This document shows, in pieces, positions 7,740 to 61,013 of a stretch of 64,000 nucleotides of DNA (its first letter is position 1; each line of letters begins with the position of its first letter). The notes below the pieces were generated by a model. It saw only the letters and a list, made by a program, of their open reading frames with translations, did not search any database and was not told the DNA's origin. The stretch comes from Eledone cirrhosa. Its lineage: Eukaryota. The stretch covers positions 130,200,001 to 130,264,000 of the forward strand of contig OZ024740.1 in NCBI GenBank assembly GCA_964016885.1, written 5' to 3'. The position numbers and the translations under genes are program-made.

Positions 7740-7933
7740 TAACGAAGGAATTGTGTTAAAGAACCAGATGGACAATAACGCACAAGAGTACTCAATAGTT
7801 AGGGTAGTAGAGTGGGTAATAGAAAAAAGTATGACCACGACGACAGAGCTAAAGTCGTTTCGACGGCTGTTTTTGGACGTCCAAAAATGGTCGTCGAAAC
7901 GGCTTACGCTCTGCCGTCGGGGTCATACTTTTT

Positions 7934-7936
<3 letters not shown>
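7740..7936 (-). mobile_element. Short fold-back PLE-derived element (3' half of HHR plus tail)
   Basis: Palindrome ~7822-7935 centred on ggacgtcc, plus ~80-nt tail homologous to 42038-42119. Flanked by (TA)n. Relatives at 27830-27964 and 34810-35005. Confidence 0.8.
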
Positions 7937-8009
<73 letters not shown>

Positions 8010-8010
8010 G

Positions 8011-8548
8011 AAAATAAAGTTAAATAAAAGTCAAATGATTAAAATTTAGCTTCGTTTATTACTGCTATATATATTTCAGTGACAGCCATCTTTGGCTGTG
8101 ACCCCTTCAGGCAGTTTGAATTAGTATGGTATAGACAAGTACATATGTTGTTTAGGTGTATAATATTGTCAATAGTCTGATATGCCCAGTTCCTTATCGG
8201 GTTGTTAATTCACTGAGGAACTGGAGTTATATGACTCCAGTCCTCAGTGAATTAACAACCCAACAAGGAACTTGGCTTATCAGAGTGTTGACAATATTAT
8301 ACACCTAAACAACATATGTACTTGTCTATACCATACTAATTCAAACTGCCTGAAGAGGTCACAGCCAAAGATGGCTGTCACTGAAATATATATAGCAGTA
8401 ATAAACGAAGCTAAATTTTAATCATTTGACTTTTATTTAACTTTATTTTACACTACTCCGGAGTAACCAAACCAACCTGCGCACTACGTCGATTGCTCCA
8501 GCTTGCATACTGAGGTGTTGGTATACAACCAACATAAACTCGAAATCT
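8011..8548 (+). mobile_element. Fold-back element, ~220-bp arms plus ~100-nt tail
   Basis: 8011-8228 is the near-perfect reverse complement of ~8233-8449. (TA)n on both sides. Confidence 0.9.
8345..8399 (+). ncRNA. Minimal type I hammerhead ribozyme
   Basis: actgc-CTGAAGA-[ggtcacagcca aaga tggctgtcact]-GAAA-tatata-TA-gcagt. Stem I 5 bp, palindromic stem III, AUA triplet. Mirror copy at 8061-8115. Confidence 0.8.
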
Positions 8549-8553
8549 ATATG

Positions 8554-10460
<1,907 letters not shown>

Positions 10461-10899
10461 CCACCGTTTTTAGCACCGGTTAATGCCTCAACTAGGGAAA
10501 TAACCCCAGGATATTGGCAGGCAAATTCAAAATGTGAACAAGGGAAGCATGCTCCCTGTACAAACCGAATGAGAAGCAGTGGACCAGGCGTTATTAGACA
10601 AACATAACTAATTAATCAATCAATAGAGTTGTATAATTAAATTAATTAATTAATTATTAGGCCTAGGAGATAATAATACAAAGGGAAGTTTAGTAAAATC
10701 GAAGCTTCGGTTGTAGCCAAGCCAATGAAATACAATCAGGAATGTTTCAGCCAAGCACTCCATGAGAAAGCCCAGAATAATAACATTCGTTAGACGGCAT
10801 GAACAATTGGAATCTGTGGCAGGGAAGTCTAGTGGCGACACCGAAGTAACGGAGGAACCAACGGGTTAATAAACAAACCTGGGCACTCACACACATACA

Positions 10900-11093: not shown

Positions 11094-11327
11094 AAAGTTT
11101 TATATAAAATTTTTGGGTTACAACAAGTAAATATTTTATGACTGATATAAAGCACTCGACAAGTTTTGGAGTAGATATACGATATTAAACAAATGGAAAC
11201 TATATTTATAAACCATATTTATTTCATTATACATATTTCGTGGATACCATATTAAAAATATGGCATGCCTTCTTCAGATAAAATACAATGTATAAACATT
11301 TTATAAACATTTTATAAACAAACCTTC

Positions 11328-12990
11328 TTGCCTAGGAAACCCAAGATCGATATGAAAGATCACAAAATAAATTTTGAAAATGATTTGCCAGTTAGATTGA
11401 TTGCACCATCAAAATCTGACCTGGGTAAACTTAGCAAAAACATTCTTGACAGGGTGATACAGCAAATTAAAAACTTACATAATTTACCTAACTTAAACTT
11501 ATGGAAGGGGACCGGTGAGGTTATTGAGTGGTTTAAAGAAATTATATATAACAATAATAATAAATTTATTCAACTAGATATTGCTAACTACTATTCATCT
11601 ATTACCCCTAATCTACTGAATAAGGCACTAAATTACGCATTCAAACATACAGACCTAACTAGCAATGAAATGCACATTATATTATCGGCAAGGAAAACAT
11701 TGATAGAATTTAATAACCAACTATGGACTAGGGCAGATAGAGATAATAATTTCGACATCACTATGGGATCATCTGACTCAGCTCAGGTAACGGACCTTGT
11801 GGGCCTATTTATAATTAATTCGCTGCATAGAAAAATACCTGGTGTAACCGGAGGATTATATCGTGATGACATGCTTTTACTTATTGAAAATAATAACTCT
11901 GAACTAAATAGGAAAAGAAAACAAATTATATAATTTTTTAATTACCTTAATCTAAAAATAGAAATATAGAATAACCATAGAATAGTCAATTTCCTAGATG
12001 TAACACTAAATCTCAACACATGTCTTCACTATCCATTTCACAAACTAAATGAAAACTTGAATTATGTCAATTTTAACTCTAATCACCCCAGATCTGTTAA
12101 AAATACTATAGTGAACTCTGTTCAAGAACGTATCTCAAGAATTTCATCTAATAAAAATATTTTCGATGAAAAAGCGCAGTATTACAATGAAGCGTTAGCT
12201 AGAGCAGGATATAGTGATAAAATTAAGTACATCGATAATAATAGGCAAACTAACCAATATAATAACAATTTTAATTACGGTAACAACTTTAACAACTATA
12301 ATAGAAAACATTACAATAATTCCAAAAGCCGGAAAAAAAATAGAACTAGAAATATAATATGGTTTGCCCCCCCCCCCTCTTTCTCACTAAATATTAAAAC
12401 CCTCATTGTTAAACTATTTTTTAATGCTCTTGACAAACGCTTCCCTAGAACGCATAAATATCACTCAATTTTTAATAGACATACTATAAAATTAACCTAC
12501 TCTTCCACCAAAAATTTAGCACAAAATATTAACAGAATAAATAATAGGAATCTAAAACCTAGTCAAAATACCGATAATGGCCAAAACAATATTCAATTAA
12601 ACAACTGTAACTGTAGAAATAAATATAAATGTCCGTTAAATAACAATTGCTTAGTTAAAAATATAATATACAATTGTAATGTTAAAACTAACTTAAATTC
12701 TTTTAACTACGTTGGTTCCACCTCGACAGAATTTAAACTTCGCTACAATAATCATAAGAATTCTTTCACAGATCCAAACAAAAAATCCTCAACTTCACTA
12801 TCAGGCTTACTCTGGCAACTTAAACAAGATAACGTTGGTTATTCGATGTTTTGGAATATTGTCTCAAGAGGGATTCCTTTTAATTCCTCATCTGAGACAT
12901 GTGACCTCTGAGTGGAGGAGATATTCTTTATATTAAAGTCCAAAAAATTCCCTTAATTTAAGGAGCAATTTATTCAGTTGCTGCAGACAT
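11328..12990 (+). pseudogene. RT plus GIY-YIG, frameshifted
   Basis: KDHK, RLIAPSKSDLG, FIQLDIANYYSSI, FDITMGSSDSA, GLYRDD, NFLDVTLNL, CNCRNKYKCPL, NIIY...YVG...FKLRYNNH. Frameshift near 11930. Confidence 0.9.
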
Positions 12991-15629: not shown

Positions 15630-16507
15630 TAGGGTAAACATTGATGCAATTCAAATCAACCACTCAACATACTCATATCCACATAGGAGTGACGGAGTAA
15701 ATATCGAATATGGAAAAGCGAAGTAGTTTCAGATGTTCAAGTCATTTAATAATAATGGTGTGATATATATTTCAATGGCCGAAAGTGGCTGCACTGTTCT
15801 GTGCGCCAGTCTCGCCACATCGTCAGACAGCTTGTTACATAATAAGGCTATGTTTCCGAGGCAATCCAAATTGAATCGACATGGGAACGGACGAAGTATG
15901 TGCTTTTGGGTTCTTCATCCGTTCCCCTGTGAGTACCAATTCACCCCCACTGGTCTGCGCAGGCGCAGGTCCAGGGGGAAGTTGACCATTAGCTACCGCA
16001 GATTTAAACGAAATTCGCTTTGTCAGTTCCCTCTCTCAGCCAGACAATGACCCATTCAAGCCGGCACCATAGTTTACTGCAACCCATCCCATCTGTGACA
16101 GTCAGCCAAAAGCCAGTGAGGGTGGGAGAGTGTTAGTATTTACAGGTCTCTATACTACCTCTCACTAATAACTGAACATCAACCTCTAAGAGTATATATT
16201 TTTAATTCTATGTATCATAGTTTCATATTGGAAGTTATATTTGAAATTAGAACTAAAAATTACAATTTAAAATCGAAAATCCTAAATCAAGTATCAGAAA
16301 TTATAAATTGAAAAATAAAAAAATAGAAATTAAACAATTAAAGATTTGGATTGCCTCGGAAACATAACCTTATTATATAACATGCTGTCTGACGAAGTCG
16401 CGAGACTGGCGCACAGAACAGAACAGTGCGGCCACTTTCGCCGTTGAAATATATATCACAGCATTATTATTAAATGACTTGAACATCTGAAACTACTTCG
16501 CTTTTCC
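15630..16507. mobile_element. Inverted-arm element with HHR
   Basis: Arms ~15712-15871 and ~16345-16507. HHR 16382-16464 (+): atgctgt-CTGACGA-stem II-GAAA-tatata-TC-acagcat. Mirror at 15756-15831. Confidence 0.8.
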
Positions 16508-22167: not shown

Positions 22168-25058
<2,891 letters not shown>

Positions 25059-25487: not shown

Positions 25488-27779
25488 GTAGAGGTTATAT
25501 TTAATTTGTTGGGATTCAACAAGCTTAAACATTTTTTTATAATTGATATAAAGTACTCAACAGTTAGTGTAGTAAATACACAATATATTAATAAATGGAA
25601 ACTATATTTATAAAACCATATTTGTTTTATTATATATATTTCAGAGGCAATAAAGGCAAATTATGGTGCGCATTCATCAGATAAAATACAGATTTGTTTT
25701 ATAAATAAATATTGACATACCCGGAAAAAAGATAAATTAACGGTTGGAGCTTCCGGGATAGTGGAGGTAATATTTTATTGAGTGTAATACAGAGTTATGA
25801 GTGAGTATGCAAATGGGTATCCGAAAAGTTGAAAAGATAACGGTTTATTTAAATAAAACCGTTGAAGTATGTATCCTTATGTATCAATTGAGTTCTTAAA
25901 AAATCACTTCTAACTTCCTTTATACTTCCTTACTGTTTTTATACTATAATTAAGTAGTTATTCCTTTGTAAACTCTCGTAAATTTTCATAAATTTGGAAT
26001 TATTTGGATGTTTAAGTTTTGCCTTACAACTATTAATAAATATAATTTTGCCAAATAAACTATACTATATTTTCTGTAATGTAAAATACTATAGAGAAAT
26101 TTCGTTTCATTCTATTCCATTTATCGTTTTCGGTGTGCCAGGCCGACCGAACTCACTCGATATGCAAATTAGGCTGCTCAGCCGTTAATATGCATAAGGA
26201 AAGTATATACTTTCAGACGTTCAACCATCTGGCAGGACAGTATACGATGCTGACGATAGCTAATAAGCTTGAAACTAGTACATCATTCCTGTGTCAGTGT
26301 TGAACAAAAAGGTGACGTAGTTGCCTAAACACTGTACGGCGTAATTCGGCCTGTTTGTTTGTTTACAAACAAACAAACCGAGCATTATAATAAATGTTCT
26401 GTAAACCGATACGTGCATATATATATGTCTGCATGTGTGTATATATATACATACTACTGTACGTCTCTATACACATATGTATGTACGTATAAATACATAC
26501 TTACATTTAAGTAAGTGCCGTACTAAGAGTGAGAAATGAAATTTCTTTTCATTCTATTCTATTTATCGTTTTCGGTGTGCCCGGCCGACTGAACTCACTC
26601 GCTATGCAAATTAGTCTGCTCATCCGTTAATATGCATAAGGAAAATATATACTTTCAGACGTTCAACCATCTGGCAGGAAGGTATTCGATGCTGACAATA
26701 GCTAATAAGCTTGAAACTAGCACATCGTTCCTGTGTCAGTGTTGAACAAACAGGTGACGTGGTTGCCTAAACACTGTACGGCGTAATTCGGGATGTTTGT
26801 TTGTTTACAAACAAAGAAACCGAGCATTATAATAAATGTTCGGTAAACCGATACGTGCATATATATATGTCTGCATTTGTGTATATATATACATACTACT
26901 GTACGTCTGTATGTATATGTGTGTGTAAGTATACATACATACATACTTACATTTAAGTAAGTGACGTACTAAGAGTGAGAAATGAAATTTCGTTTCATTC
27001 TATTCCATTTAAAATACTATATATATATATTTATGTAAATAATTTATAATCCATAACATACACATGTAAACGAATGTATTATTACTAATAAATCCTAATA
27101 TAATATAAATACTTCTGTTTTAATTTTAATTTTTAATTTGTAATATTAATATTAAATAACATTTTTAAAATTAATGTAAATGTTAATCTTTAATTTTGAT
27201 TTTTAATTTTTAATTGTAATTTTTCCAAATTATCATTATAAATATTATAATCACAACGTAATGGACCATACATTCTAAATGTTATTCTTCCACGTTAATC
27301 TTATTTCTTCTTTCACTTCTTCTTTCACTTCTTCTTTCATTTAGATATATTTACACTCTATATTCTCCCATTAATATTTATTTCTTCGTTCACTCTTGAA
27401 TATCATCACTATCAATATGTATAATCGTTCTTTCTTTCCACTTCTCTCTTTCTCATTCCATTTCTTTTTTCCTCTCTCCCTTACATATCCCCTTCTTCCA
27501 ACAGTTTAATTTGAATAAACCGTTATCTTTTAAACTTTTCGGACACTCTACTCACTCATAACTTTGTATTACCCTCAATAAAATATTATCTCCACTATCC
27601 AGGAAGCTCCAACCGTTAAGGTTGTCCGTTTTCCGAGTATGTCAATATTTATTTATAAGACAAATCTGTATTTTATCTGATGAAAGCGCACCATAATGTG
27701 CCTTGTTTGGCCTTGAAATATATATAATAAAATAAAAATGGTTTTATGAATATAATTTCCAGTTATTAATATATTGTAT
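25488..27779. mobile_element. Non-coding PLE derivative related to the copy A pLTR
   Basis: Arms ~25580-25865 and ~27500-27779. HHR 27669-27734 (+): tattttat-CTGATGA...GAAA-tatata-TA-ataaaata, mirror 25623-25688. Hosts a nested insertion. Confidence 0.8.
26094..27009 (+). mobile_element. Retrozyme-like dimer with 12-bp TSD
   Basis: Two 442-bp-spaced units with HHRs at 26244-26286 and 26686-26728. TAAAATACTATA at 26082-26093 and 27010-27021. Confidence 0.85.
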
Positions 27780-27972
27780 ATATATATATATATATATGTT
27801 TATACATATGTATACAAATATATATATATAACAAAGGAATTGTGGTAAGGAACCAGATGGACGATAACGCACCAGAGTACTCAATACTTAGGGTAGTAGA
27901 GTGGAAAATAGGAAAAAGTATGACCCCCGACGGCAGATCTCTGCGGTCGGGGTCATACTTTTTCATATATAT

Positions 27973-34744: not shown

Positions 34745-34811
<67 letters not shown>

Positions 34812-35023
34812 AAAAAGTATGACCCCGACTGCAGAGCTGAAGCCGTTTCGACGGTTATTTCTGGACTGTCCAGAAATAGCCTTCGAAACAGCTTGAGCTC
34901 TGCCATTTGGGTCATACCTTTTCCTACTTCCGAATCTACTACCCTAAGTATTGAGTACTCTGGTGCGCTATGGTTCATATGGTTCCTTACCACGATTCCT
35001 TTGTTATATATATATATATATAT

Positions 35024-39069: not shown

Positions 39070-39104
<35 letters not shown>

Positions 39105-39107
<3 letters not shown>

Positions 39108-39448
39108 GTTCAACAATCTGACAGTAAGGTATACGTTGCTGACGATAGCTAATAAGCTTGAAACTAGTACAGTGTTCCTTTGTCACTGTTGAACAAACGA
39201 GCAACGATGGTTGCTAGACACTACGGCTTAATATGGGATGTTTGTTTACAAACACACCGAGCATTATAATAATTGTACGGTGAATCCATACGTACATATA
39301 TATATATATATATATGTGTGTGCATGTATGTATATGTATATACATACTAGTGTACGTCTGTATACATATATGTATGTACGTGTACATACTTATATTTAAG
39401 TAACAGCCGTACCAAGAGTTGGAAAATAAATTTCGTTTCATTTGTTCC

Positions 39449-39452
<4 letters not shown>
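39105..39452 (+). mobile_element. Retrozyme-like partial unit
   Basis: HHR at 39133-39175 with intact core. Confidence 0.8.
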
Positions 39453-39502
<50 letters not shown>

Positions 39503-39703
39503 CTATGTATACGTACACACATATATGTATACAGGCGTATGCTCGTATGCATGTACATACATACATGCACACATATATATATACATGTACGTGGTAAGAG
39601 AGAGAAATGACATTTCAGTTTTTTAGTTTTTTCTATTTATATATATATATACATATCTATATATACGTATACATATATGTATATATATATATATATATAT
39701 ATA

Positions 39704-42116
39704 GAAACCAGTAAGACCCCGACGGCTGAGCTCAAGCCGTTTCGATGGCTAATTCTGGACAAAATGAAAATTTATCCTGGTATTTAAATAGCCGATCTTC
39801 TCAAGGGGTAATTCCATATATGGTCAAAGTGATTGTCAAAAGTCAGTAGTAATTCTGTGATTGCAAATTAGTAGGGGAGATGGTGGCTAAACCTGCCAGT
39901 AGGAGAAAGAGGCGAGGGGGTGGAGTAGACCCAATCAAGCGTTGGTAGTGCCAGCTACAGCTGGGCATGAGGTCAAAGAAGATACTGGGGGGGGGGAGGG
40001 GGAGGAAATCGGAACAGTAGTTAGAACAATGAGGCGTCAAAATATATATGAAAGAAAAAATACTGAGAGTGAAGAAAAGCGAATAAGTGTAAAGAAAAAA
40101 GTAAAGCAAGTTCTACGTCCTAAGTCTCTAGCTATTGTTAGGCTAGAGAAATAAATAAAGAAAGAAAGAAAGAAGTAAAGAAAGAAATAACGAAATAAGT
40201 AAATGAACTAGGTGGGACGGAATAGGCAAGGACCCTTTTAAGAGGTATAAGTACGTAAATTATACGGTGACGGGTCAACAAATGGTGCCAAAATACTAAA
40301 GAGACTACCACGAAATAAATAATAAAGGTTTCTACGAGATAATAATTCTGAGTCCCGAAAAAAATATATACTAAAGCTAACTCTAAAAGGTCTTATACAA
40401 GCTACATGAAAGTTCGTACGAAGTAAAGGTAGAATACGGAAAAATAAATTCAGAATCCACCCCGCCCAAAAGAAAAGCGTAGAAAGAAAAACTGAAACGA
40501 GAAAATAAGGCATAAGTGCAACTAAGAAATATAGCAGGCACGGAAAATAGTGGGAGCGGTCGAAAAAAGGGGGCAAGTACCCGGGGTCTAAACCAGCTGC
40601 TATAAAAAGCGGAGTCCGCCAAATCTATCATAGACTAGGGGAGGGGTGGGGGTATTGAGGCTACAAGGGGCCAAAGGGCAGCCTCGGGTGGGCGAGAAAA
40701 GACGCCGACAAAGAAGAAGAGCTGGGGTAGAAGGACTAAGGAGGGATGGGGGGAAGAAGGAAATAAAGGAAGCGATAAAAGAATAAAAAGAAGATCTTAA
40801 GTCTCCCTTGGCAAGCAGGGGTTTCCCATTGCAAAATCGGCAAGAGGTGTTATAGCCCTAGTCTCCCCCCCCCCCCCGGGACATTATGGGGTTTGAGGGC
40901 GAGGTAAGTCCTACGCAATCTATGTTTACATTCAGTAACCAGTTCATCTACCCCAGCTCTTCTTCTTTGTCGGCGTCTTTTCTCGCCCACCCGAGGCTGC
41001 CCTTTTGCCCCTTGTAGCCTCAGTACCCCCACCCCATCCCCTAGTCTATGATAGATTTGGCGGACTCCGCTTTTTATAGCAGCTGGTTTAGACCCCGGAT
41101 ACTTTCCCCCTTTTTCTGACCGCTCCCACTATTTTCCGTGCCTTCTATATTTCTTAGTGGCACTTATGCCTTATTTTCTCGTTTCAGTTTTTCTTTCTTC
41201 GCTTTTCTTTTGGGCGGGGTGGATTCTGAATTTATTTTTCCGTATTCTACCTTTACTTCGTACGAACTTTCATGTAGCTTGTATAAGACCTTTTAGAGTT
41301 AGCATTAGTATATATTTTTTTCGGGACTCAGAATTATTATCTCGTACTAGTTTACTTAGCTGCACTGGGTGGTTGCTGGCATTGTGCCCTGGATAGAAAC
41401 CTTTATTATTTATTTCGTGGTAGTCTCTTTAGTATTTTGGCACCATTTGTTGACCCGTCACCGTATCATTTACGTACTTATACCTCTTAAAAGGGTCCTT
41501 GCCTATCCGTCCCACCTAGTTCATTTACTTATTTCGTTATTTCTTTATTTCTTTCTTTACTTCTTTCTTTCTTTCTTTATTTATTTATCTAGCCTAACAA
41601 TAGCTAGAGACTTAGGTCGTAGAACTTGCTTTACTTTTTGCTTTAGACTTATTCGCTTTTCTTCACTCTCAGTATTTTTTCTTTCATATATATTTTTACC
41701 CCTCATTGTTCTAACTACCGTTCCGACTTCCTCCCCCTCCCCCTCCCCATCCCCAGTATCTTCTTTGACCTCATGCCCAGCTGTAGCTGGCACTACCAAT
41801 GCTTGATGGGGTCTACTCCACCCCCTCCCCACTTTCTCCTACTGGCAGGTTTAGCCACCATCTCCCCTACTAATTTGCAATCACAGAATTACTACTGACT
41901 TTTCTCAATCACTTTGACCATATATGGAATTACCCCTTGAGAAGATCGGCTATTTAAATACCAGGATAAATTTTCATTTTGTCCAGAATTAGCCGTCGAA
42001 ACGGCTTGAGCTCAGCCGTCGGGGTCTTACTGGTTCCTATTACCCACTCTACTACTCCAAGTATTGAGTACTCTGGTGCGTTATGGTCCTCCTGGTTCCT
42101 TACCACATTTCCTTCG

Positions 42117-42119
<3 letters not shown>
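39704..42119. mobile_element. Fold-back derivative of the PLE copy C 3' region
   Basis: Minus arm 39704-40949 includes the last ORF codons. Plus arm 40950-42119 carries the tail. Highly similar to 55890-57229. Confidence 0.9.
41926..42037 (+). ncRNA. Type I hammerhead with U3-A8 core variant
   Basis: acccc-TTGAGAA-gatcggcta...tagccgtc-GAAA-cggct tgagctc agccg-TC-ggggt. GUC triplet ends at 42020. Copies at 39704-39815 (-), 57117-57228 (+), 58526-58637 (-), 60821-60932 (+). Confidence 0.75.
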
Positions 42120-42167
<48 letters not shown>

Positions 42168-43130
42168 TTCAGGTTATCAATAATGTAGTGATAATATATC
42201 GTTACGTTAGAGATGAACAGCGTACGTGTATGTTTGCTCAACGAGTATAAATTATATTCCGGAGAAAATGTAGAAAAGATGAACATAAAATGAAAGTGCT
42301 TTTTTTTAATAAAGGAATTTATTAGATATTGACATATGTTTCTTTAACAGACGGACTACCTATGTATCGCTGCTTGCGTAATCATATAATGTGACCAAGT
42401 ATTCGATAGCAAATGTATAATCAGTTGTCACTTCTTCAGAGATATTGGATAAATTGGAAAAAATCAGAAAAATTGAAATATTTATATTAGTTGTAATAAA
42501 GAAGGAAGAGAGGGGATAGTATATGACAGATGGCAATTCAATTTACTGGTAAACAAGTATATAAAGGGTTTCTAATGAGAATACAATGAGTATATGGTTT
42601 ATTTTATCTAAATAACAATTTTTGGGAGTGCCTATTTTAACTATACTTGACCAATTGATCAATGGACAGGGCTGGTCGTTTGGTGTAGTAGTAATAATTA
42701 TAAAGTGTCAATTAAGGAAGAGGGAGATTTCAACTGCTACTGAATAACAACAATGCTGGTAGCCGGCTGGTATATGCTTTAGGGAATTGAATTAAGAAAT
42801 CTCATTTTATGTATAGCAGTTTATATTAAATGGTAAAGAATAGAAGAGTTGATAGAATTAAGACTAATAGAGAATGTTAATATGTATTTTGACAATCAAA
42901 CGGAGATGGAGACAGGCGTTCAATTCTGGTAGTATTTGTAATATGAAAATGTAGATTTTAAGCGATGGTTACAGTATGACGATCGCTCTATTCTGTTATT
43001 TACTAAAATGTTTTTGGATTTCATAATACAAAATAATTCCATATTACATAATTTACAAAATTCCTGTCCGTGGGAATTTACAAAATTCCTGTCCGTGGCA
43101 ATATGGAGGGGCAGCCGCTATTATATCCCA

Positions 43131-44919
43131 GCTACACCATCCTTCAACCTGAAAGACTACAAGTTAAACTTCAATACTGACACTAAAATTAGAGTTATAT
43201 GCCCCTCTAAATCTGATATAGGCAAAATTAGCAAATATATACTAGACAGAATTATCCCCCAAGTTAAGGCTAAAGTAGATATTAAACTATGGAGTAACAC
43301 CCATTAAGGCAATAAGATGTTTCAATAGCATTACTAATAAGAAAAAAATCAAAATTTATTCAGTTCGATATTGATGAATATTATTCCTCAATTTCACCTG
43401 ATACTCTACATGAAGCTCTTTCGTTCGCTAAGGCTAATTCCGACCTTACGGATACTGAAATTAAAATTATTATGGAAGCGAGGAAAACTATTGTTACATT
43501 TGATGATAGCTACTGGGTTCGCAAAGATAGACCTTCTAATTTTGATATTACTATGGGTTCCAATGATTCGGCGGAAGTAACTGATCTTGTGGGAATTTAT
43601 ATAACCCACAGACTACAAGGAAAATTCGAGGATCTCCACGGTGGAATCTACCGTGACGATGCGCTCCTATTAGTTAAGCATATGAATAACCAGAATTTAG
43701 AAAGGATGCGTAAAAATATCAGAAAGCTTTTTAAGGAACTAGGATTAAATATTACATTTGAATATAACCTCAAAGAGGTTAATTTCCTTGATGTTACTTT
43801 GAATCTCAATACAGAAACGATTAAACCGTTCCATAAACTAAATGAGAACCTTAAATATGTAAATACGAGTTCTAACCATCCACCCTCTATAATTAAATCC
43901 ATCCCTAGAAATATTTCCCTTAGAATCTCCCTCCTGTCGTCCAACCAGCAAACATTCAAAGAACATGCCGAATATTATGATGATGCACTTAGGAAGGCTG
44001 GACACCTAGATAATATAGAGTATATAGTCGACGATCACCAAAACACCCAAAATAAATCTCATAGGGGTAAAAATAGCATAGAATCACCACCATACGTACA
44101 CTACCGCAATAGACACACTAATAGTCGCACACCACCAAATAGAAGGCGATGTAAAGAGTATATATGGTACAACCCGGTCTATGACAACTCTATTAAAACC
44201 AATCTACCCTCACAATTCTTTCAATTAGTTAAAAAAAAATTTCCAACATCACATAAATATAATAAAATCTTAAACCCTAACACTATTCAACTTTCATATT
44301 CAACCGCCCCTCATATTGAACAACATATAAAATAGCTTAACGCAAAACGGTTGTATAAACGCCTTCCAACACATAACAATACACGTAAAACATCAGCTAT
44401 AACATCACAAAACAACAAACAACTTCCCGTCCTACCTAAGCAACCTCATCAACCCATCCATGCTAATACAACAACGCAAAATTATAACTGTAACAGTGTC
44501 CAACCAGGTATGTGTCCGTTGAACAATCAGTGTCTTGAACGCAACATCATTTACAAATGTACTATCGAATCGGATAGCCAGAAATGGTACTATGTGGGGT
44601 CTACAGCCACCTCCTTCAAATCTCGCCTTTATAGACATCGTTACTCGATAAAACATGTAAACCAGCGTTATGTAACAACACTCGCAGAAAAGGCTTGGCA
44701 GCTGCGCGAAAATAACCAACAATTTAACCTAAAATGGGATATAATAGGGGCTGCCCCTCCATATCTCACGGACAGCAATTTTGTAAATTATGTAATATGG
44801 AATTATTTTGTATTATGAAATCTAAAAACATTTTATTAAATAACAGAATAGAGCGACCGTTATGCTGTAACCATTACTTAAAATCTACATTTTCATATTA
44901 CAAATACTACCAGCATTGA
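43131..44919 (+). pseudogene. RT plus GIY-YIG with stops and frameshifts
   Basis: [74 protein letters not shown]. Confidence 0.9.
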
Positions 44920-45394
44920 ACGCCTGTCTCAATCTCCGTTTGATTGTCAAAATACATATTAACATTCTCTATTAGTCTTAATTCTATCAACTCTTCTATT
45001 CTTTACTATTTAATATAAACTGCTATACATAAAATGAGATTTCTTAATTCAATTCCCTAATGCATATACCAGCAGGCTACCAGCATTGTTGTTATTCAGT
45101 AGCAGTCGAAATCTCCCTCTTCCTTAATTGACACTTTATAATTAATACTACTACACCAAACGAGCTGCCCTGTCCATTGTTCAATTGGTCAAGTTTAAAT
45201 TAAAATAGGCACTCCCAAAAATTGTTATTTAGATAAAATAAACCATATACTCATTGTATTCTCATTAGAAACCCTTTATATACTTGTTTACCAGTAAATT
45301 GAATTGCCATCTGTCATATACTATCCCCTCTCTTCCTTCTTTATTAAAACTAATATAAATATTTCAATTTTTCTGATTTTTTCCAATTTATCCA

Positions 45395-45514
45395 ATATCT
45401 CTGAAGAAGTGACAACTGATTATACATTTGCTATCGAATACTTGCTAACATTATATGATTACGCAAGCAGCGATACATAGGTATTCCGTCTGTTACAGAA
45501 ACATATGTCAATAC
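45395..45514 (+). ncRNA. Candidate hammerhead with large stem II insertion
   Basis: CTGAAGA(45401)-a gtgaca...~75 nt...tgttac a-GAAA-catatg-TC. Stem I is weak. Mirror at ~42326-42447. Confidence 0.5.
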
Positions 45515-45559
45515 CTAATAAATTCCTTTTTTAAAAAAAAGCACTTTCATTTTATATTC

Positions 45560-45660
<101 letters not shown>

Positions 45661-53653: not shown

Positions 53654-53731
<78 letters not shown>

Positions 53732-54219
53732 ATTAAAATAACAGATTAAAGTTTAAGCAAATAATCGCTGCTTTCACCCTTAACGGGATCTTTTGAAACT
53801 AACAAATTCAATCTGTAAACGCAGAACTGGATATTTCAAAAAACGTTGCAACCGGAGGAAGACAGGAAGACGATACTTTGTTTCGTGGAAACGTTCGCTG
53901 GCTAAGAACGGGAAAAAACGAATATAATACATCATTAATAGGAGCGGTGATATATATAAGTATGTACACGCCAGGGAACGTTTCCACGAACCAAAGTATC
54001 GTCTTGCTGTCTTCCTCTGGTTGCAACGTTTTTTGAAATAGCCACTGCTGCGTTTACAAATTGACTTTGTTAGTTTCAGAAGATCCCGTTAAGGGTGAAA
54101 GGAGCGATTCTTTGCTTACACTTTAATCTGTTATTTTAATAAATATTTGCACTACGGTTCTTATATATTTGATATATATTTATCCTTATCGAGCCCTCTT
54201 TGGATTTTAGTCTTTACAT

Positions 54220-54354: not shown

Positions 54355-55950
54355 ACTGAAGGACCATAAATCCGATTTTGACCGTAAACCCTCTATCAGG
54401 CTTATTAACCCAACGAAGTCCGACATAGGGAGAATCAGCCAAAAAATCCTAGACCGCGTGATACCAAAAGTCAGGCAACACGCCAGACTTAGCCTATGGA
54501 TCAACACACAGGAAGTAATCTCATGGTTCAGCAATATGGAGGATAAACGAGACACTAAATTCATACAGTTCGAGATAGAGAGCTACTATGCTTCAATCAC
54601 CTTACCGCTACTTACTGCTGCCTTGGACTTCGCTGAAACACTTGTGCCCATCACCGACCAGGAAAGAAAAATCATCCTCCACGCCAGGAAGACAGTCTTA
54701 CTCTTTGACGACTCTAAATGGATGAAAAGAGCTCCCGACTCACCCTTCGACGTCAGCATGGGCGCCACGGATTCGGCGGAGGTCACAGATCTTATAGGAT
54801 TATTCCTAATAGACAAACTCACCGATATGTTTCCTGCATTCGGTGGTGGATTGTACCGTGGTGATGGGCTCCTTACCCTTAAAGGGTACAACCCCAGTAG
54901 TACAGATCGGGTCCGGAAACAATTAATCAGCTTCTTCCGCGACTGTGGATTTAAAATAACCCTACAAACGTCCCTGACCCGAGTAAACTTCCTGGACGTG
55001 ACCCTCGACCTCGAAAACGACCTGTACTACCCATACAGGAAACCTAATGACAACCTGCACTACATCCACCACCGATCAAACCATCCTAGGAACATCACCA
55101 ACAACCTGGTCAAAAACATCTCCCTCCGCATATCCCGTTTGTCAGCTAATGAGCGGATATTCGATGAACATGCGCCTTATTACAACCAGGCCCTTAAGGA
55201 GGAAATATCCCTTTCTGGGAGGAAATATCCTACTGTCCAGCTCCCATTAGCGGAACCAGCAGGATACACCGCCGCTCACGCGATGTAACATGGTTCAATC
55301 CTCCCCCACAACGCAGAGGTGACAACTCCCATCGGGAAACTATTCTTTAGGCTCATTGAAAAATACTTCCCACTACAACACCGCTACCACAACATAATTA
55401 ACAAAAGTACCATCAAACTCTCTTACAGCACCACACCAAACTTCGCACAAAACATCGTCTCCTCTAACAACAAAAAAGTCAACCCCGATGGAAGAAATAA
55501 CCTAAATAGCAGTGGAGAGCCGACCAGGAGGTGCAACTGTCCGGATAGATCCATTTGCCCACTCGACAATGGAAGCAGAGACCGTAATGTGATCTACCAG
55601 TGCAACGTGAGGACGGACACCTCCAACAAAGCTTATATAGGACTAACCGCATGTGACTTCAAGACCCGGCTATACCAACATAGACATACCTTCTGAAACC
55701 CGGCCCGGCGTCACGCCACTACACTTTCGGGCCACATATGGGACCTCAAGGACAACAATCACCTATGATCTCACTTGGAGATTAGTGTCCTGAGCCAATT
55801 CTTACACGGGAGGACGCCGTCCGTGCAATTTATGCTCGGAGGAAACTTTACAAATGCTGTTTTCGACGGACCAACTACTAAACAAGAAAGATGAAATGGT
55901 TACTGCATGTAAACATAGATTGCTTAGGACTTACCTCGCCCTCAAACCCC
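54355..55950 (+). pseudogene. RT plus GIY-YIG, inactivated
   Basis: [40 protein letters not shown] (catalytic DD lost), [23 protein letters not shown]...YIG, CNLCSEE. The track ORF start at 54200 is microsatellite read-in. Confidence 0.9.
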
Positions 55951-57229
55951 ATAATGACCCGGGGGGGGGGGGGGGGTAGACTAGGGCTATAACACCCCAC
56001 TTGCCGATTTTGCAATGGGTAACCCCTGCTTGCCAAGGGAAACGTAAGATCTTCTTTTTATTCTTTTATCGCTTCCTTTATTTCCTTCTTCTCCCTATCC
56101 CTCCTTAGTCCTTATACCCCAGTTCTTCTTTGTCGACGTCTTTTCTCGCCCACCCGAGGCTGCCCTTTGGCCCCTTGTAGCCTCAATACCCCCACCCCCT
56201 CCCCTAGTCTGTGATAGATTTGGCGGACTCCGCTTTTTATAGCAGTTGTGTTAGACCTCGGATACTTGCCCCCTTTTCTGACCGCTCCCCCTATTTTCCG
56301 TGCCTTCTATATTTCTTAGTGGCACTTATGCGTTATTTTCTCGTTTCAGTATTTATTTCTTCTCTTTTCTTTTGGGCGGGGTGGATTCTGAATATATTTT
56401 TCCGTATTCTACCTTTACTTCGTACGAACTTTCATGTAGCTTGTATAAGATCTTTTGTAGCGCGGCGGTACCTTTAGAGTTAGCATTAGTATATATTTTT
56501 TTCGGGACTCAGAATTATTATCTCGTACTAGTTTACTTTGCTGCACTGGGTGGTTGCTGGCCTTGTGCCCGGGATAGAAACCTTTATTATTTATTTCGTG
56601 GTAGTTTCTTTAGTATTTTGGCCCCATTTGTTGACGCGTCACCGTATGATTTACGTACTTATACCTCTTAAAAGGGTCCTTGCCTATTCCGTCCCACCTA
56701 GTTTATTTACTTATTTCGTTATTTCTTTATTTCTTTCTTTATTTCTTTCTTTCTTTCTTTATTTCTTTATTTATTTATCTTGCCTAACAATAGCTAGAGA
56801 TTTAGGCCGTAGAACTTGCTTTTATACTCTTTTTTCTTTATACTTATTCGCTTTTCATCACTCTCAGTATTTTTTCTTTCATATATATTTTTTTACCACT
56901 CATTGTTCTACCTACCGTTTCGACTTCCTCCCCCTCCCTCTCCCCAGTATCTTCTTTGACCTCATGCCCAGCTGTAGCTGGCACTACCAACGCTTGATTG
57001 GGTCTACTCCACCCCCTCCCCTTTTTCTCCTTCTGGCATGTTTAGCCACCATCTCCCCTACTAATTTGCAATCACAGAATTACTACTAACTTTTGACAAT
57101 CACTTTGACCATATATGGAATTACCCCTTGAGAAGCTCGGCTATTTAAATACCAGGATAAATTTTCATTTAGTCCAGAATTAGCCGTCGAAACGGCTTGA
57201 GCTCAGCCGTCGGGGTCTTACTGGTTCCT
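54355..57229 (+). mobile_element. PLE copy C (Hydra-clade-like), 5'-truncated, ~1.3 kb 3' UTR
   Basis: Starts directly after (TA)n and ends just after the U3-A8 HHR. Confidence 0.9.
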
Positions 57230-57273
<44 letters not shown>

Positions 57274-58489: not shown

Positions 58490-58525
<36 letters not shown>

Positions 58526-58527
<2 letters not shown>

Positions 58528-61013
58528 AACCAGTAAGACCCCGACATCTGAGCTCAAGCCGTTTCGACGGCTAATTCTGGACTAAATGAAAATTTATCCT
58601 GGTATTTAAATAGCCGATCTTCTCAAGGGGTAATTCCATATATGGTCAAAGTGATTGTCAAAAATCAGTAGTAATTCTGTGGTTGCAAATTAGTAGGGGA
58701 GATGGTGGCTAAACCTGCCAGTAGGAGAAAGAGGGGAGGGAGTGGAGTAGACCCAATCAAGCGTTGGTAGTGCCAGCTACAGCTGGGCATGAGGTCAAAG
58801 AAGATACAGGGGAGGGGGAGGGGGAGGAGGTCGGAACGGTAGGTAGAACAATGGGGGGTAGAAATAGGAAAGAAAAAATACTGAGAGTGAAGAAAAGCAA
58901 ATAAGTGTAAAGAAAAAAGTAAAGTAAATTAAATTCTACGACCTAGGTGTCAGGCTATTGTTAGGCGAGAATAAAATAAAGAAAGAAAGAAAGAAGTAAA
59001 TAAATAAATAAATAAATAAATAAGGAAATAAGTAAGAGAACTAGGTGGGACGGATAAGGCAAGGACCCTTTTAAGAGGTATAAGTACGTAAATGATACGG
59101 TGACGGGTCAACAAAAGGGGCCAAAATACTAAAGAGACTACCACGAAATAAACAATAAAGGTTTCCATCCCGGGCCAGCAACGACCCAGTGCAGCAAAGT
59201 GAACTTGTACGAGATAATAATTCTGAGTCCCGAGAAAAATATATACTAATGCTAACTCTAAAAGATCTAAAACAAGCTACATGAAAGTTCGTACGAAATA
59301 AAGGTAGAATACGGAGAAATAAATTCAGAATCCACCCCGCCCAGAAGAAAAGCGAAGCAAGAAATACTGAAACGAAAATATAAGGCATGTGCCACTAAGA
59401 AATATAGAGGGCACAGAGAATAGTGGGAGCGGTCGGAAAAAGGGGGAAAATATCCGGGGTCTAAGCCAACTGCTATAAAGGGCGGAGTCCGCCAAATCTA
59501 TCAAAGACTAGGGGAGGGGGGGGGGGGGGGTACTAAGGCTACATGGGGCCAAAGGGCAGCCTCGGGTGGGCGAGAAAAGACGCCGACAAAGGAAACTTTA
59601 CAAATGCTGTTTTCGACGGACCAACTCCTAAACAAGAAAGATGAACTGGTTACTGCATGTAAACATAGATTGCGTAGGACTTACCTCGCCCTCAAACCCC
59701 ATAATGACCCGGGGGGGTAGACTAGGGCTATAACACCCCAGTTGCCGATTTTGCAATGGGTAACCCCTGCTTGCCAAGGAAGACGTAAGATCTTCTTTGT
59801 ATTCTTTTATCGCTTCCTTTATTTCCTTCCCCCCTCTCTCCTTTGTCCTTCTACCCCAGCTCTTCTCCTTTGTCGGCGTCTTTTCTCGCCCACCCGAGGC
59901 TGCCCTTTGGCCCCATGTAGCCTTAGTACCCCCCCCCCCCCCTCCCCTAGTCTTTGATAGATTTGGCGGACTCCGCCCTTTATAGCAGTTGGCTTAGACC
60001 CCGGATATTTTCCCCCTTTTTCCGACCGCTCCCACTATTCTCTGTGCCCTCTATATTTCTTAGTGGCACATGCCTTATTTTTTCGTTTCAGTATTTCTTG
60101 CTTCGCTTTTCTTCTGGGCGGGGTGGATTCTGAATTTATTTCTCCGTATTCTACCTTTATTTCGTACGAACTTTCATGTAGCTTGTTTTAGATCTTTTAG
60201 AGTTAGCATTAGTATATATTTTTCTCGGGACTCAGAATTATTATCTCGTACAAGTTCACTTTGCTGCACTGGGTCGTTGCTGGCCCGGGATGGAAACCTT
60301 TATTGTTTATTTCGTGGTAGTCTCTTTAGTATTTTGGCCCCTTTTGTTGACCCGTCACCGTATCATTTACGTACTTATACCTCTTAAAAGGGTCCTTGCC
60401 TTATTCGTCCCACCTAGTTCTCTTACTTATTTCCTTATTTATTTATTTATTTATTTATTCACTTCTTTCTTTCTTTCTTTATTTTATTCTCGCCTAACAA
60501 TAGCCTGACACCTAGGTCGTAGAATTTAATTTACTTTACTTTTTTCTTTACACTTATTTGCTTTTCTTCACTCTCAGTATTTTTTCTTTCCTATTTCTAC
60601 CCCCCATTGTTCTACCTACCGTTCCGACCTCCTCCCCCTCCCCCTCCCCTGTATCTTCTTTGACCTCATGCCCAGCTGTAGCTGGCACTACCAACGCTTG
60701 ATTGGGTCTACTCCACCCCCTCCCCTATTTCTCCTACTGGCAGGTTTAGCCACCATCTCCCCTACTAATTTGCAACCACAGAATTACTACTGATTTTTGA
60801 CAATCACTTTGACCATATATGGAATTACCCCTTGAGAAGATCGGCTATTTAAATACCAGGATAAATTTTCATTTAGTCCAGAATTAGCCGTCGAAACGGC
60901 TTGAGCTCAGATGTCGGGGTCTTACTGGTTCCTATTACCCACTCTACTACCTCAAGTATTGAGTACTTTGGTGCGTTATGGTCCACATGGTTCCTTACCA
61001 CATTTCCTTCGTT
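58526..61013. mobile_element. Second fold-back derivative of the PLE C family
   Basis: Minus arm 58526-59591, plus arm 59591-61013 (ORF end, 3' UTR, tail). Arms are nearly identical. Confidence 0.9.

Follow-up and report, generated by a model that had tools for sequence, protein, structure and literature searches.

A U3-A8 hammerhead motif in a Hydra-clade Penelope-like element of Eledone cirrhosa and the points at which its short copies begin

The analysis of a 64,000-nucleotide stretch of the Eledone cirrhosa genome (hereafter the window) and of the copies of one of its repeats across the assembly suggests that this repeat, a Hydra-clade Penelope-like element (PLE), carries in its pLTR a type I hammerhead in which U3-A8 is the norm. 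It is probably a weak ribozyme, likely to cut few transcripts after C42020 and likely to be dispensable for retrotransposition. The U3-A8 swap alone is ordinary and already published, and the interest lies in a family-wide record of the start, the cleavage products and the drift of the 3-8 pair. Such a record bears on an unsettled question in the field, namely the in vivo activity of PLE hammerheads and their importance for the element: low activity in vitro, normal insertion of hammerhead mutants and an unsuccessful search for reads at the cut site have been described, in the available texts of PMC4209133 and PMC11167929. The coordinates of the features are reported in Table 1.

Table 1. Features of the hammerhead at U3 41937, of its host element and of related copies (positions in the window).
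Feature	Position	Strand	Remarks
Type I hammerhead fold (stems I, II, III and core)	41932..42025	+	3' pLTR of the putative Hydra-clade PLE
Stem I	ACCCC 41932-41936 / GGGGT 42021-42025	+	
Core strand U3-U4-G5-A6-N7-A8-A9	41937..41943	+	U3 41937; G7 in window copies; A8 41942
G10.1 paired with C11.1	41944 / 41997	+	
Stem II	41947-41952 / 41990-41995	+	
Loop II, 37 nt	41953..41989	+	contains ACCAG 41960-41964, the T(T/C)AGT motif and a weakly conserved hairpin
Main 5'-end cluster of short copies	41976..41987	+	peak 41980-41981; putative transcription start
GAAA	41998-42001	+	
Stem III	42002-42006 / 42014-42018	+	encloses palindrome TGAGCTCA
U16.1-C17 and predicted scissile bond 42020/42021	42019..42021	+	GUC; minor 5'-end cluster of short inserts at 42021
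CTGGT, proposed pseudoknot partner	42030..42037	+	overlaps 3' strand of distal stem I (41926-41931 / 42032-42037)
Inverted tail-less partner copy	39701..40737	-	full hammerhead (U3 39804)
3' UTR of the element, 5'-truncated	40941..41931	+	about 91% identical to 56107-57231
Optional 77-nt tail	42041..42117	+	copies end at 42040 or 42117, then (TA)n
(TA)n target repeat	42118..42163		
Broken RT and GIY-YIG endonuclease region, same family	54359..55930	+	CxCx5C linker; sense to hammerhead
Hammerhead copy ending the 54359-55930 element	57097..57231	+	U3 57128
Hammerhead copy, tail-less inverted arm	58523..58657	-	U3 58626
Hammerhead copy with tail	60801..61012	+	U3 60832

The window harbors five full copies of the motif, with U3 at 41937 (+), 39804 (-), 57128 (+), 58626 (-) and 60832 (+), and the UUGAGAA core that had been reported for them was confirmed in each; one stem II pair is broken in the copy at 39804, and stem III of the copies at 58626 and 60832 reads AGATG (one mismatch, one wobble). 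By its motifs and anatomy, the host element is a Hydra-clade PLE, which supports the PLE identity originally proposed. Indeed, a 1.1-kb 3' UTR that follows the broken RT/GIY-YIG region ends in the hammerhead motif in the same sense; CxCx5C and VIY..YIG were found at 55530-55650, and DKT and RWR in a genomic locus of the family. According to the available text of Craig et al. 2021 (PMC8557442), a C-terminal GIY-YIG, DKT, RW(R) and the CxCx5C linker are common to Hydra-clade PLEs, which, as observed here, also show (TA)n targets, an inverted truncated partner and an optional tail. A Pfam search gave no hit. Among 30 genomic loci chosen by their match to the RT fragment, 11 carry a full hammerhead and tail 830-635 nt upstream of it, and further loci carry a partial one; the ORF starts about 115 nt past the tail. 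The pLTR hammerhead thus stands both before and after the ORF, accompanied by a (TA)n target, an inverted partner and a tail, as in the anatomy of the Hydra clade. The tail is 77 nt long, whereas 30-40 nt are given for Hydra-clade PLEs, whose hammerheads are described as canonical (File S2 may hold variants), unlike the U3-A8 one (PMC8557442). The two alternative ends of the copies, 42040 and 42117, recall PAc, a Poseidon PLE of Anolis, in which the tail is delimited by two sites of RT initiation, in the portion of Frangieh et al. 2024 available (PMC11167929).

Every part of the ribozyme named in the original prediction (stems I, II and III, GAAA and the GUC site, within 41926..42037) was found in place, and the predicted cleavage position after 42020 agrees with the motif register. 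In the predicted structure, three stems surround the core and stem I is open, as expected for type I, with pair probabilities of 0.54-0.99 across the stems. The energy of the whole-region fold is not unusual when compared with shuffled sequences (z = -1.56); therefore, the case for a hammerhead rests on the order of the motifs and on the family data. As for the former, U4, G5, A6, N7 and A9, G12, A13 and A14, A15.1-U16.1 and H17 are all present, and the sister family has an identical core. As for the latter, in 129 full copies, a set deliberately enriched for variant cores, stems I-III are 89-100% paired, except for one terminal stem III pair (89/129), part of this conservation being imposed by the selection pattern. 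Helix covariation is represented by one double change in stem II between the main and the sister family (G-C to A-U), with none within the main family. In the sister family, stem II can be extended to about 11 bp, and the hairpin of loop II is differently placed. Probing the window with the Rfam covariance models at the gathering threshold did not retrieve any hit, and no hammerhead family was found at 41880-42120 up to E=10. It had been anticipated that standard searches would miss the motif; they do, but at the same threshold they also miss the canonical C3-G8 motifs of the window (listed at the end), so that the miss is not specific to U3-A8.

The abundance of the variant core was evaluated with a 19-nt pattern in which positions 3, 7 and 8 were left free, by counting exact matches across the 3.0-Gb assembly; this pattern counts the arms of inverted pairs separately and misses diverged copies. 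It retrieved 7,399 matches, and its reversed control none. Position 7 takes all four bases genome-wide, and A occupies position 8 in 7,291 of the 7,399 matches (98.5%). Since position 7 varies freely, the register of the core is fixed, and an alternative register with N7 deleted was ruled out on the same ground. U3-A8 accounts for 5,414 matches and is the norm of the family; C3·A8, in which the 3-8 Watson-Crick pair is absent, accounts for 1,815 (about a quarter), and 108 have a base other than A at position 8, which leaves 62 by subtraction. The canonical C3-G8 core was found in 8 of the 100 non-A8 matches listed, that is, in at most 16 of all 7,399. Such a dominance of U3-A8, with C3-G8 near absent, is in agreement with the original view that the copies are not decayed CUGANGA cores, and decay from that consensus was ruled out by these counts. 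Nevertheless, U3-A8 cannot be called fixed, as had been proposed: besides the quarter of matches with C3·A8, whole amplified subfamilies have C3·A8 or U3·G8 cores, including a small one in which 24 of 26 matches have G8, the copies read having U3. The sister family, which has a different loop II, is also U3-A8.

The order in which these states arose was analyzed on two trees. The first, based on 350 nt upstream of the core, kept 79 of 140 rows (all five sister-family rows were lost) and is a ladder, in which old U3-A8 and U3·G8 copies are followed by a long grade of C3·A8 copies, many nodes of which are strongly supported, and then by the young U3-A8 lineage of the window. The second, with positions 3 and 8 masked, included the sister family and 69 of 191 rows (the flank filter left 131, from which those with C or T at position 8 were removed before the classes were thinned to 10). 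Its main lineage reads U3·G8, U3-A8, C3·A8, U3-A8, an order that depends on the midpoint root, which falls between the main and the sister families. An AU test rejected all U3 rows as one clade (p = 2e-38), the grouping having been named after the tree was seen. Since the C3·A8 copies branch off between the old U3 lineages and the young ones, the mismatched core was carried by a lineage that kept amplifying. The sister family has three old C3-G8 copies, one of which entered the tree, on a long branch, so that a C3-G8 ancestor is not rootable. The old sister subfamily mixes these three copies read as C3-G8 with U3·G8 ones, a possible trace of a canonical ancestor.

Most tail-bearing copies are short fold-back inserts in (TA)n, and their 5' ends are clustered. 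We sampled the first 90 positions of the 7,707 matches to an anchor placed 3' of the cut site. Out of 91 tail-bearing arms, 10 are full (core kept), none ends at 41934-41975, 55 end at 41976-41987, 18 at 41988-42019, 8 at 42020-42023 and none further 3'; 48 of 62 tail-less arms also end at 41976-41987. Genome-wide, 5,289 fold-back junctions fall in this zone of loop II (about 41980). The peak coincides with the A of T(T/C)AGT, base 41980 being T in the window copy and A in most copies, and TTAGT is kept in the otherwise different loop, of similar length, of the sister family. This motif appears similar to TCAGT, the initiator of invertebrates. In PLEs, both the promoter and the start site are located in the pLTR (PMC2377424; PMC8557442, as far as the available texts go). 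These data suggest that transcription likely starts inside loop II, at about 41980, which would also explain the size of the loop.

A somewhat unlikely alternative is that the 41980 end reflects stalling of RT in the loop II hairpin, a site of endonuclease cutting or a splice acceptor (TTTTCATTTAG). The position does lie within the 3' arm of a possible hairpin, after a pyrimidine-rich tract ending in AG, and the ends are scattered over 41976-41987; moreover, several 5' ends in the sister family lie 10-14 nt further 5' than 41980 (with a biased anchor), which counts against a start. However, the hairpin is not conserved, whereas TTAGT is, even in the different loop of the sister family, and only one of 153 arms ends at 41934-41975 versus 11 reading through; the location of known PLE promoters and start sites in the pLTR also favors a start. 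The splice-acceptor reading is disfavored, the arms retaining the AG and showing no constant upstream exon.

Three fold-back inserts of older subfamilies in the window (7779-7938, 34807-35020 and 27790-27968) hold only the 3' half of the hammerhead, with the turning point at the loop II site in two of them and in the palindromic loop III in the third. Elsewhere in the assembly (G000:C1:27009562-27010102), three head-to-tail units of 257 bp begin at the loop II site, cross the tail and continue in the direction of the ORF start, as though RT had repeatedly jumped from the RNA 5' end.

A second, minor cluster of ends lies at the predicted cut site. The 8 tail-bearing arms at 42020-42023 comprise six real cases and two indel artefacts (Poisson p about 0.001 against the 41988-42019 background). 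Five of the six real insertions have both arms ending at the G run whose first base, 42021, would also be the first of the 3' product of cleavage; the two arms of an insertion are hence not independent, and insertions were counted. The share of cut-site junctions was then compared among four subfamilies that differ in age and at other sites, as genome-wide junctions over tail-bearing copies, the patterns for numerator and denominator being different. It is 163/7,707 (2.1%) in a U3-A8 subfamily with the proposed pseudoknot (see below) intact, 99/2,910 (3.4%) in a U3-A8 subfamily with the pseudoknot broken, 87/9,180 (0.95%) in a class with about 65% C3·A8 among the 100 matches listed, and 5/605 (0.83%; 4 exact) in a class that is C3·A8 in 6/6 anchored full copies. 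Were cutting restricted to the third of the mixed class that has U3, about 79 junctions would be expected, and 87 were seen. Among 50 matches listed for each class and inspected by eye, 44-45 (2.1% class), 37-38 (3.4% class) and 37 (0.95% class) stop at the G run, and 5-13 of 50 listed junctions per class run at least two templated bases past the cut. The junctions at the G run in the 2.1% class have no or few untemplated bases. When the pattern window was shifted 3' of the cut, 68 matches were retrieved, many of which had the long arm still stopping at 42021. The two U3-A8 classes also differ from each other in cut-site share (p = 0.0002); given this, together with the unlike patterns, ages and sites, the correlation with the 3-8 pair rests on only four non-independent classes.

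According to these data, the inserts beginning at 42021 are likely a fossil record of the in vivo cutting of a small share of the RNAs. The cut-site inserts of the C3·A8 classes might derive from a stop unrelated to catalysis, from residual activity or from trans cutting. More tentatively, we propose that the fold-backs as a whole could be a quantitative fossil record, showing a start in loop II and an in vivo product, that the cut share might track the 3-8 pair, and that a near-dead C3·A8 core may have amplified and reverted to U3-A8.

The following scenario would probably account for these observations. Reverse transcription would start at the tail ends (42040 or 42117) and run off the RNA 5' end, where RT would often add a base and fold back; given such a run-off, the fold-back points would mark RNA 5' ends. 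The major end would be the transcription start in loop II, which implies that most RNAs would lack the 5' half of the ribozyme and could not cut themselves. Read-through RNAs would carry the whole ribozyme, a few percent of them being cut, and the minor end at 42021 would be the 5'-OH product of this self-cleavage. Long copies would need the passage of RT through an uncut (or religated) hammerhead; slow cleavage would thus be tolerated and cost little. In lineages still amplifying, drift would have taken the 3-8 pair through the states U·G, U-A and C·A, and tolerance of a slow ribozyme would fit both this drift and the in vitro dispensability of cleavage described in the available text of PMC11167929. 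If fold-back points do mark RNA 5' ends, start sites and cleavage products could be read from PLE-rich assemblies without RNA data. Furthermore, the same tertiary pair occurs naturally in this family as U·G, U-A and C·A, and the genomic readout of these states could be compared with kinetics.

Trimming at 42021 might instead occur in a double hammerhead, in which the core-bearing 3' pLTR pairs, via the palindromic stem-loop III, with the 5' half-ribozyme, possibly leading to circularization. An RNA starting at 41980 holds the whole substrate strand, the 17-mer of stem-loop III self-pairs at -27.3 kcal/mol, and trans trimming could explain the residual ends of the C3·A8 classes; cleavage as a dimer is also the published model for PLE hammerheads (PMC4209133, in its available part; PMC6765202). 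On the other hand, the 5-6 pairs of stem III form in the monomer (pair probability 0.54-0.85), whereas dimers are imposed by stems of 1-2 bp; the motif differs accordingly from the PLE min-HHR class, in which helix III is absent or 1-2 bp long, although its loop is palindromic. We consider this scenario unlikely; it is in any case compatible with that of a weak ribozyme, and the two are not exclusive.

A further, improbable explanation is that the motif no longer cuts and is kept as a promoter, a protein-binding or an RT-initiation structure, with the 42021 ends being structural or G-run RT stops. C3·A8 and U3·G8 lineages did amplify, the core is missing from most short copies, 42021 ends are still seen in C3·A8-rich classes, and cleavage is dispensable in vitro for another PLE (PMC11167929, available text). 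Yet the ends fall at the scissile bond and not at the base of stem III, often with untemplated A/T, and the cut-site share is 2-4 times lower with a mismatched 3-8 pair in the presence of the same G run and of the same stems I and III; moreover, position 7 is free, whereas 98.5% of matches have A at position 8.

The original model, a fast U3-A8 hammerhead stabilized by a pseudoknot and fixed in the family, appears very improbable. ACCAG in loop II and CTGGT 3' of stem I are both present as described. Their five pairs are worth -5.1 kcal/mol against -4.1 for the distal duplex, the pseudoknot is intact in the youngest lineage, CTNGT variants retain four of the five pairs, and pseudoknots are common in hammerheads (about 40%, in the available text of PMC3088659). 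Nevertheless, all five pairs occur in only 40 of the 129 full copies, with no compensatory changes among them; the middle pair is lost in 80 (C-U in 49, C-C in 31), and loop II of the sister family lacks ACCAG. In the nested fold, the 3' bases of the pseudoknot pair with GGAAUU as distal stem I, and hence compete, with a pair probability of 0.93-0.99 (a nested fold cannot score pseudoknots). The cut-site inserts are, in addition, more frequent in the pseudoknot-broken U3-A8 class than in the intact one. The hairpin ggataaa/tttgtcc of loop II exists in the window, but it is perfect only with the T at 41980, and all seven pairs are found in 7/129 copies. The pair counts in the 129 copies thus rule out both pseudoknot and hairpin as conserved elements. 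A different contact, noticed by eye, is AGTN (41980-41983) with NACT (42028-42031): four pairs are possible in three subfamilies (AGTA/TACT, AGTC/GACT and AGTT/GACT), whereas in the most abundant subfamilies the fourth pair is a mismatch.

The novelty claimed for U3-A8 in PLEs does not stand, since it had already been reported in about 1,300 Schistosoma PLE motifs (Cervera and de la Pena 2014, PMC4209133). As described in the available text of that work, the hammerheads of the Cercyon PLEs of Schistosoma mansoni share with the present one the type I fold, the pLTR location, U3-A8, a long helix II, a helix I of 4-5 bp, G10.1-C11.1 and a palindromic region at helix III. They differ in the unpaired bases, which precede G10.1 in Cercyon and follow it here, and a stem III of 5-6 pairs, a 37-nt loop II and amplified C3·A8 and U3·G8 subfamilies distinguish the present family; the same text has no mention of C3·A8/U3·G8 states or of truncation ends. 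Natural U3-A8 covariation was also described, with earlier in vitro activity cited, by Perreault et al. 2011 (PMC3088659), from whom a U3 variant with G8 is quoted in PMC7151607. In the former, as far as available, variant cores are rare and the pseudoknots are supported by mutant analysis, whereas here there are thousands of variant copies and a proposed pseudoknot lacking covariation.

In the available account of PAc (PMC11167929), hammerhead mutants insert normally in vitro, cleavage is weak and protein-assisted, and no RNA-seq reads begin or end at the cut site, which counts against in vivo cutting. The PAc core is C3-G8; here, by contrast, it is U3-A8 and genomic inserts begin at the cut site. 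As for transcription, Penelope of Drosophila virilis has an internal TATA-less promoter and a pLTR start (Schostak et al. 2008, PMC2377424, available text), and a pLTR start is likely here as well. In D. virilis it precedes by 46 bp an intron that ends at the helix I 5' end, and is thus upstream of the hammerhead, unlike the putative start inside loop II. U3-A8 does not occur in the available text of a retrozyme preprint (10.64898/2026.07.22.740005), and a literature search covering few subscription papers found no prior report of amplified C3·A8 lineages or single 3-8 mismatches, of insertions with a 5' end at the cut site, or of transcription starting within loop II or the hammerhead.

The window also contains other repeats of interest. 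Canonical C3-G8 hammerhead-like motifs belonging to other repeat families occur at 8346 (+), 16385 (+), 22344 (-), 24816 (+), 27673 (+), 29645 (-) and 57649 (-); in most of them stem III consists of one pair and its loop is palindromic or nearly so (TATATA, TGCGCA, TATGGA). Those at 22344 and 24816 are identical and form an inverted pair, and the one at 16385 has a long loop II too. PLE RT and endonuclease remnants at 11307-12911 (+) and 43152-44818 (+) are 39-51% identical to the studied family and to each other; a remnant of a different type, with a GIY-YIG-like end, lies at 9218-10615 (-) and gave no match in tblastn. The remnant at 43152-44818 is flanked by an inverted repeat of 809 bp (42268-43075 / 44764-45572, 96%). 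A tandem repeat at 26096-27011 (442 bp, 2.1 copies, 92% match) is related to a dispersed repeat found at 39092-39499 and elsewhere. Lastly, a separate fold-back of 420 bp at 53726-54146 carries a degenerate hammerhead-like core.
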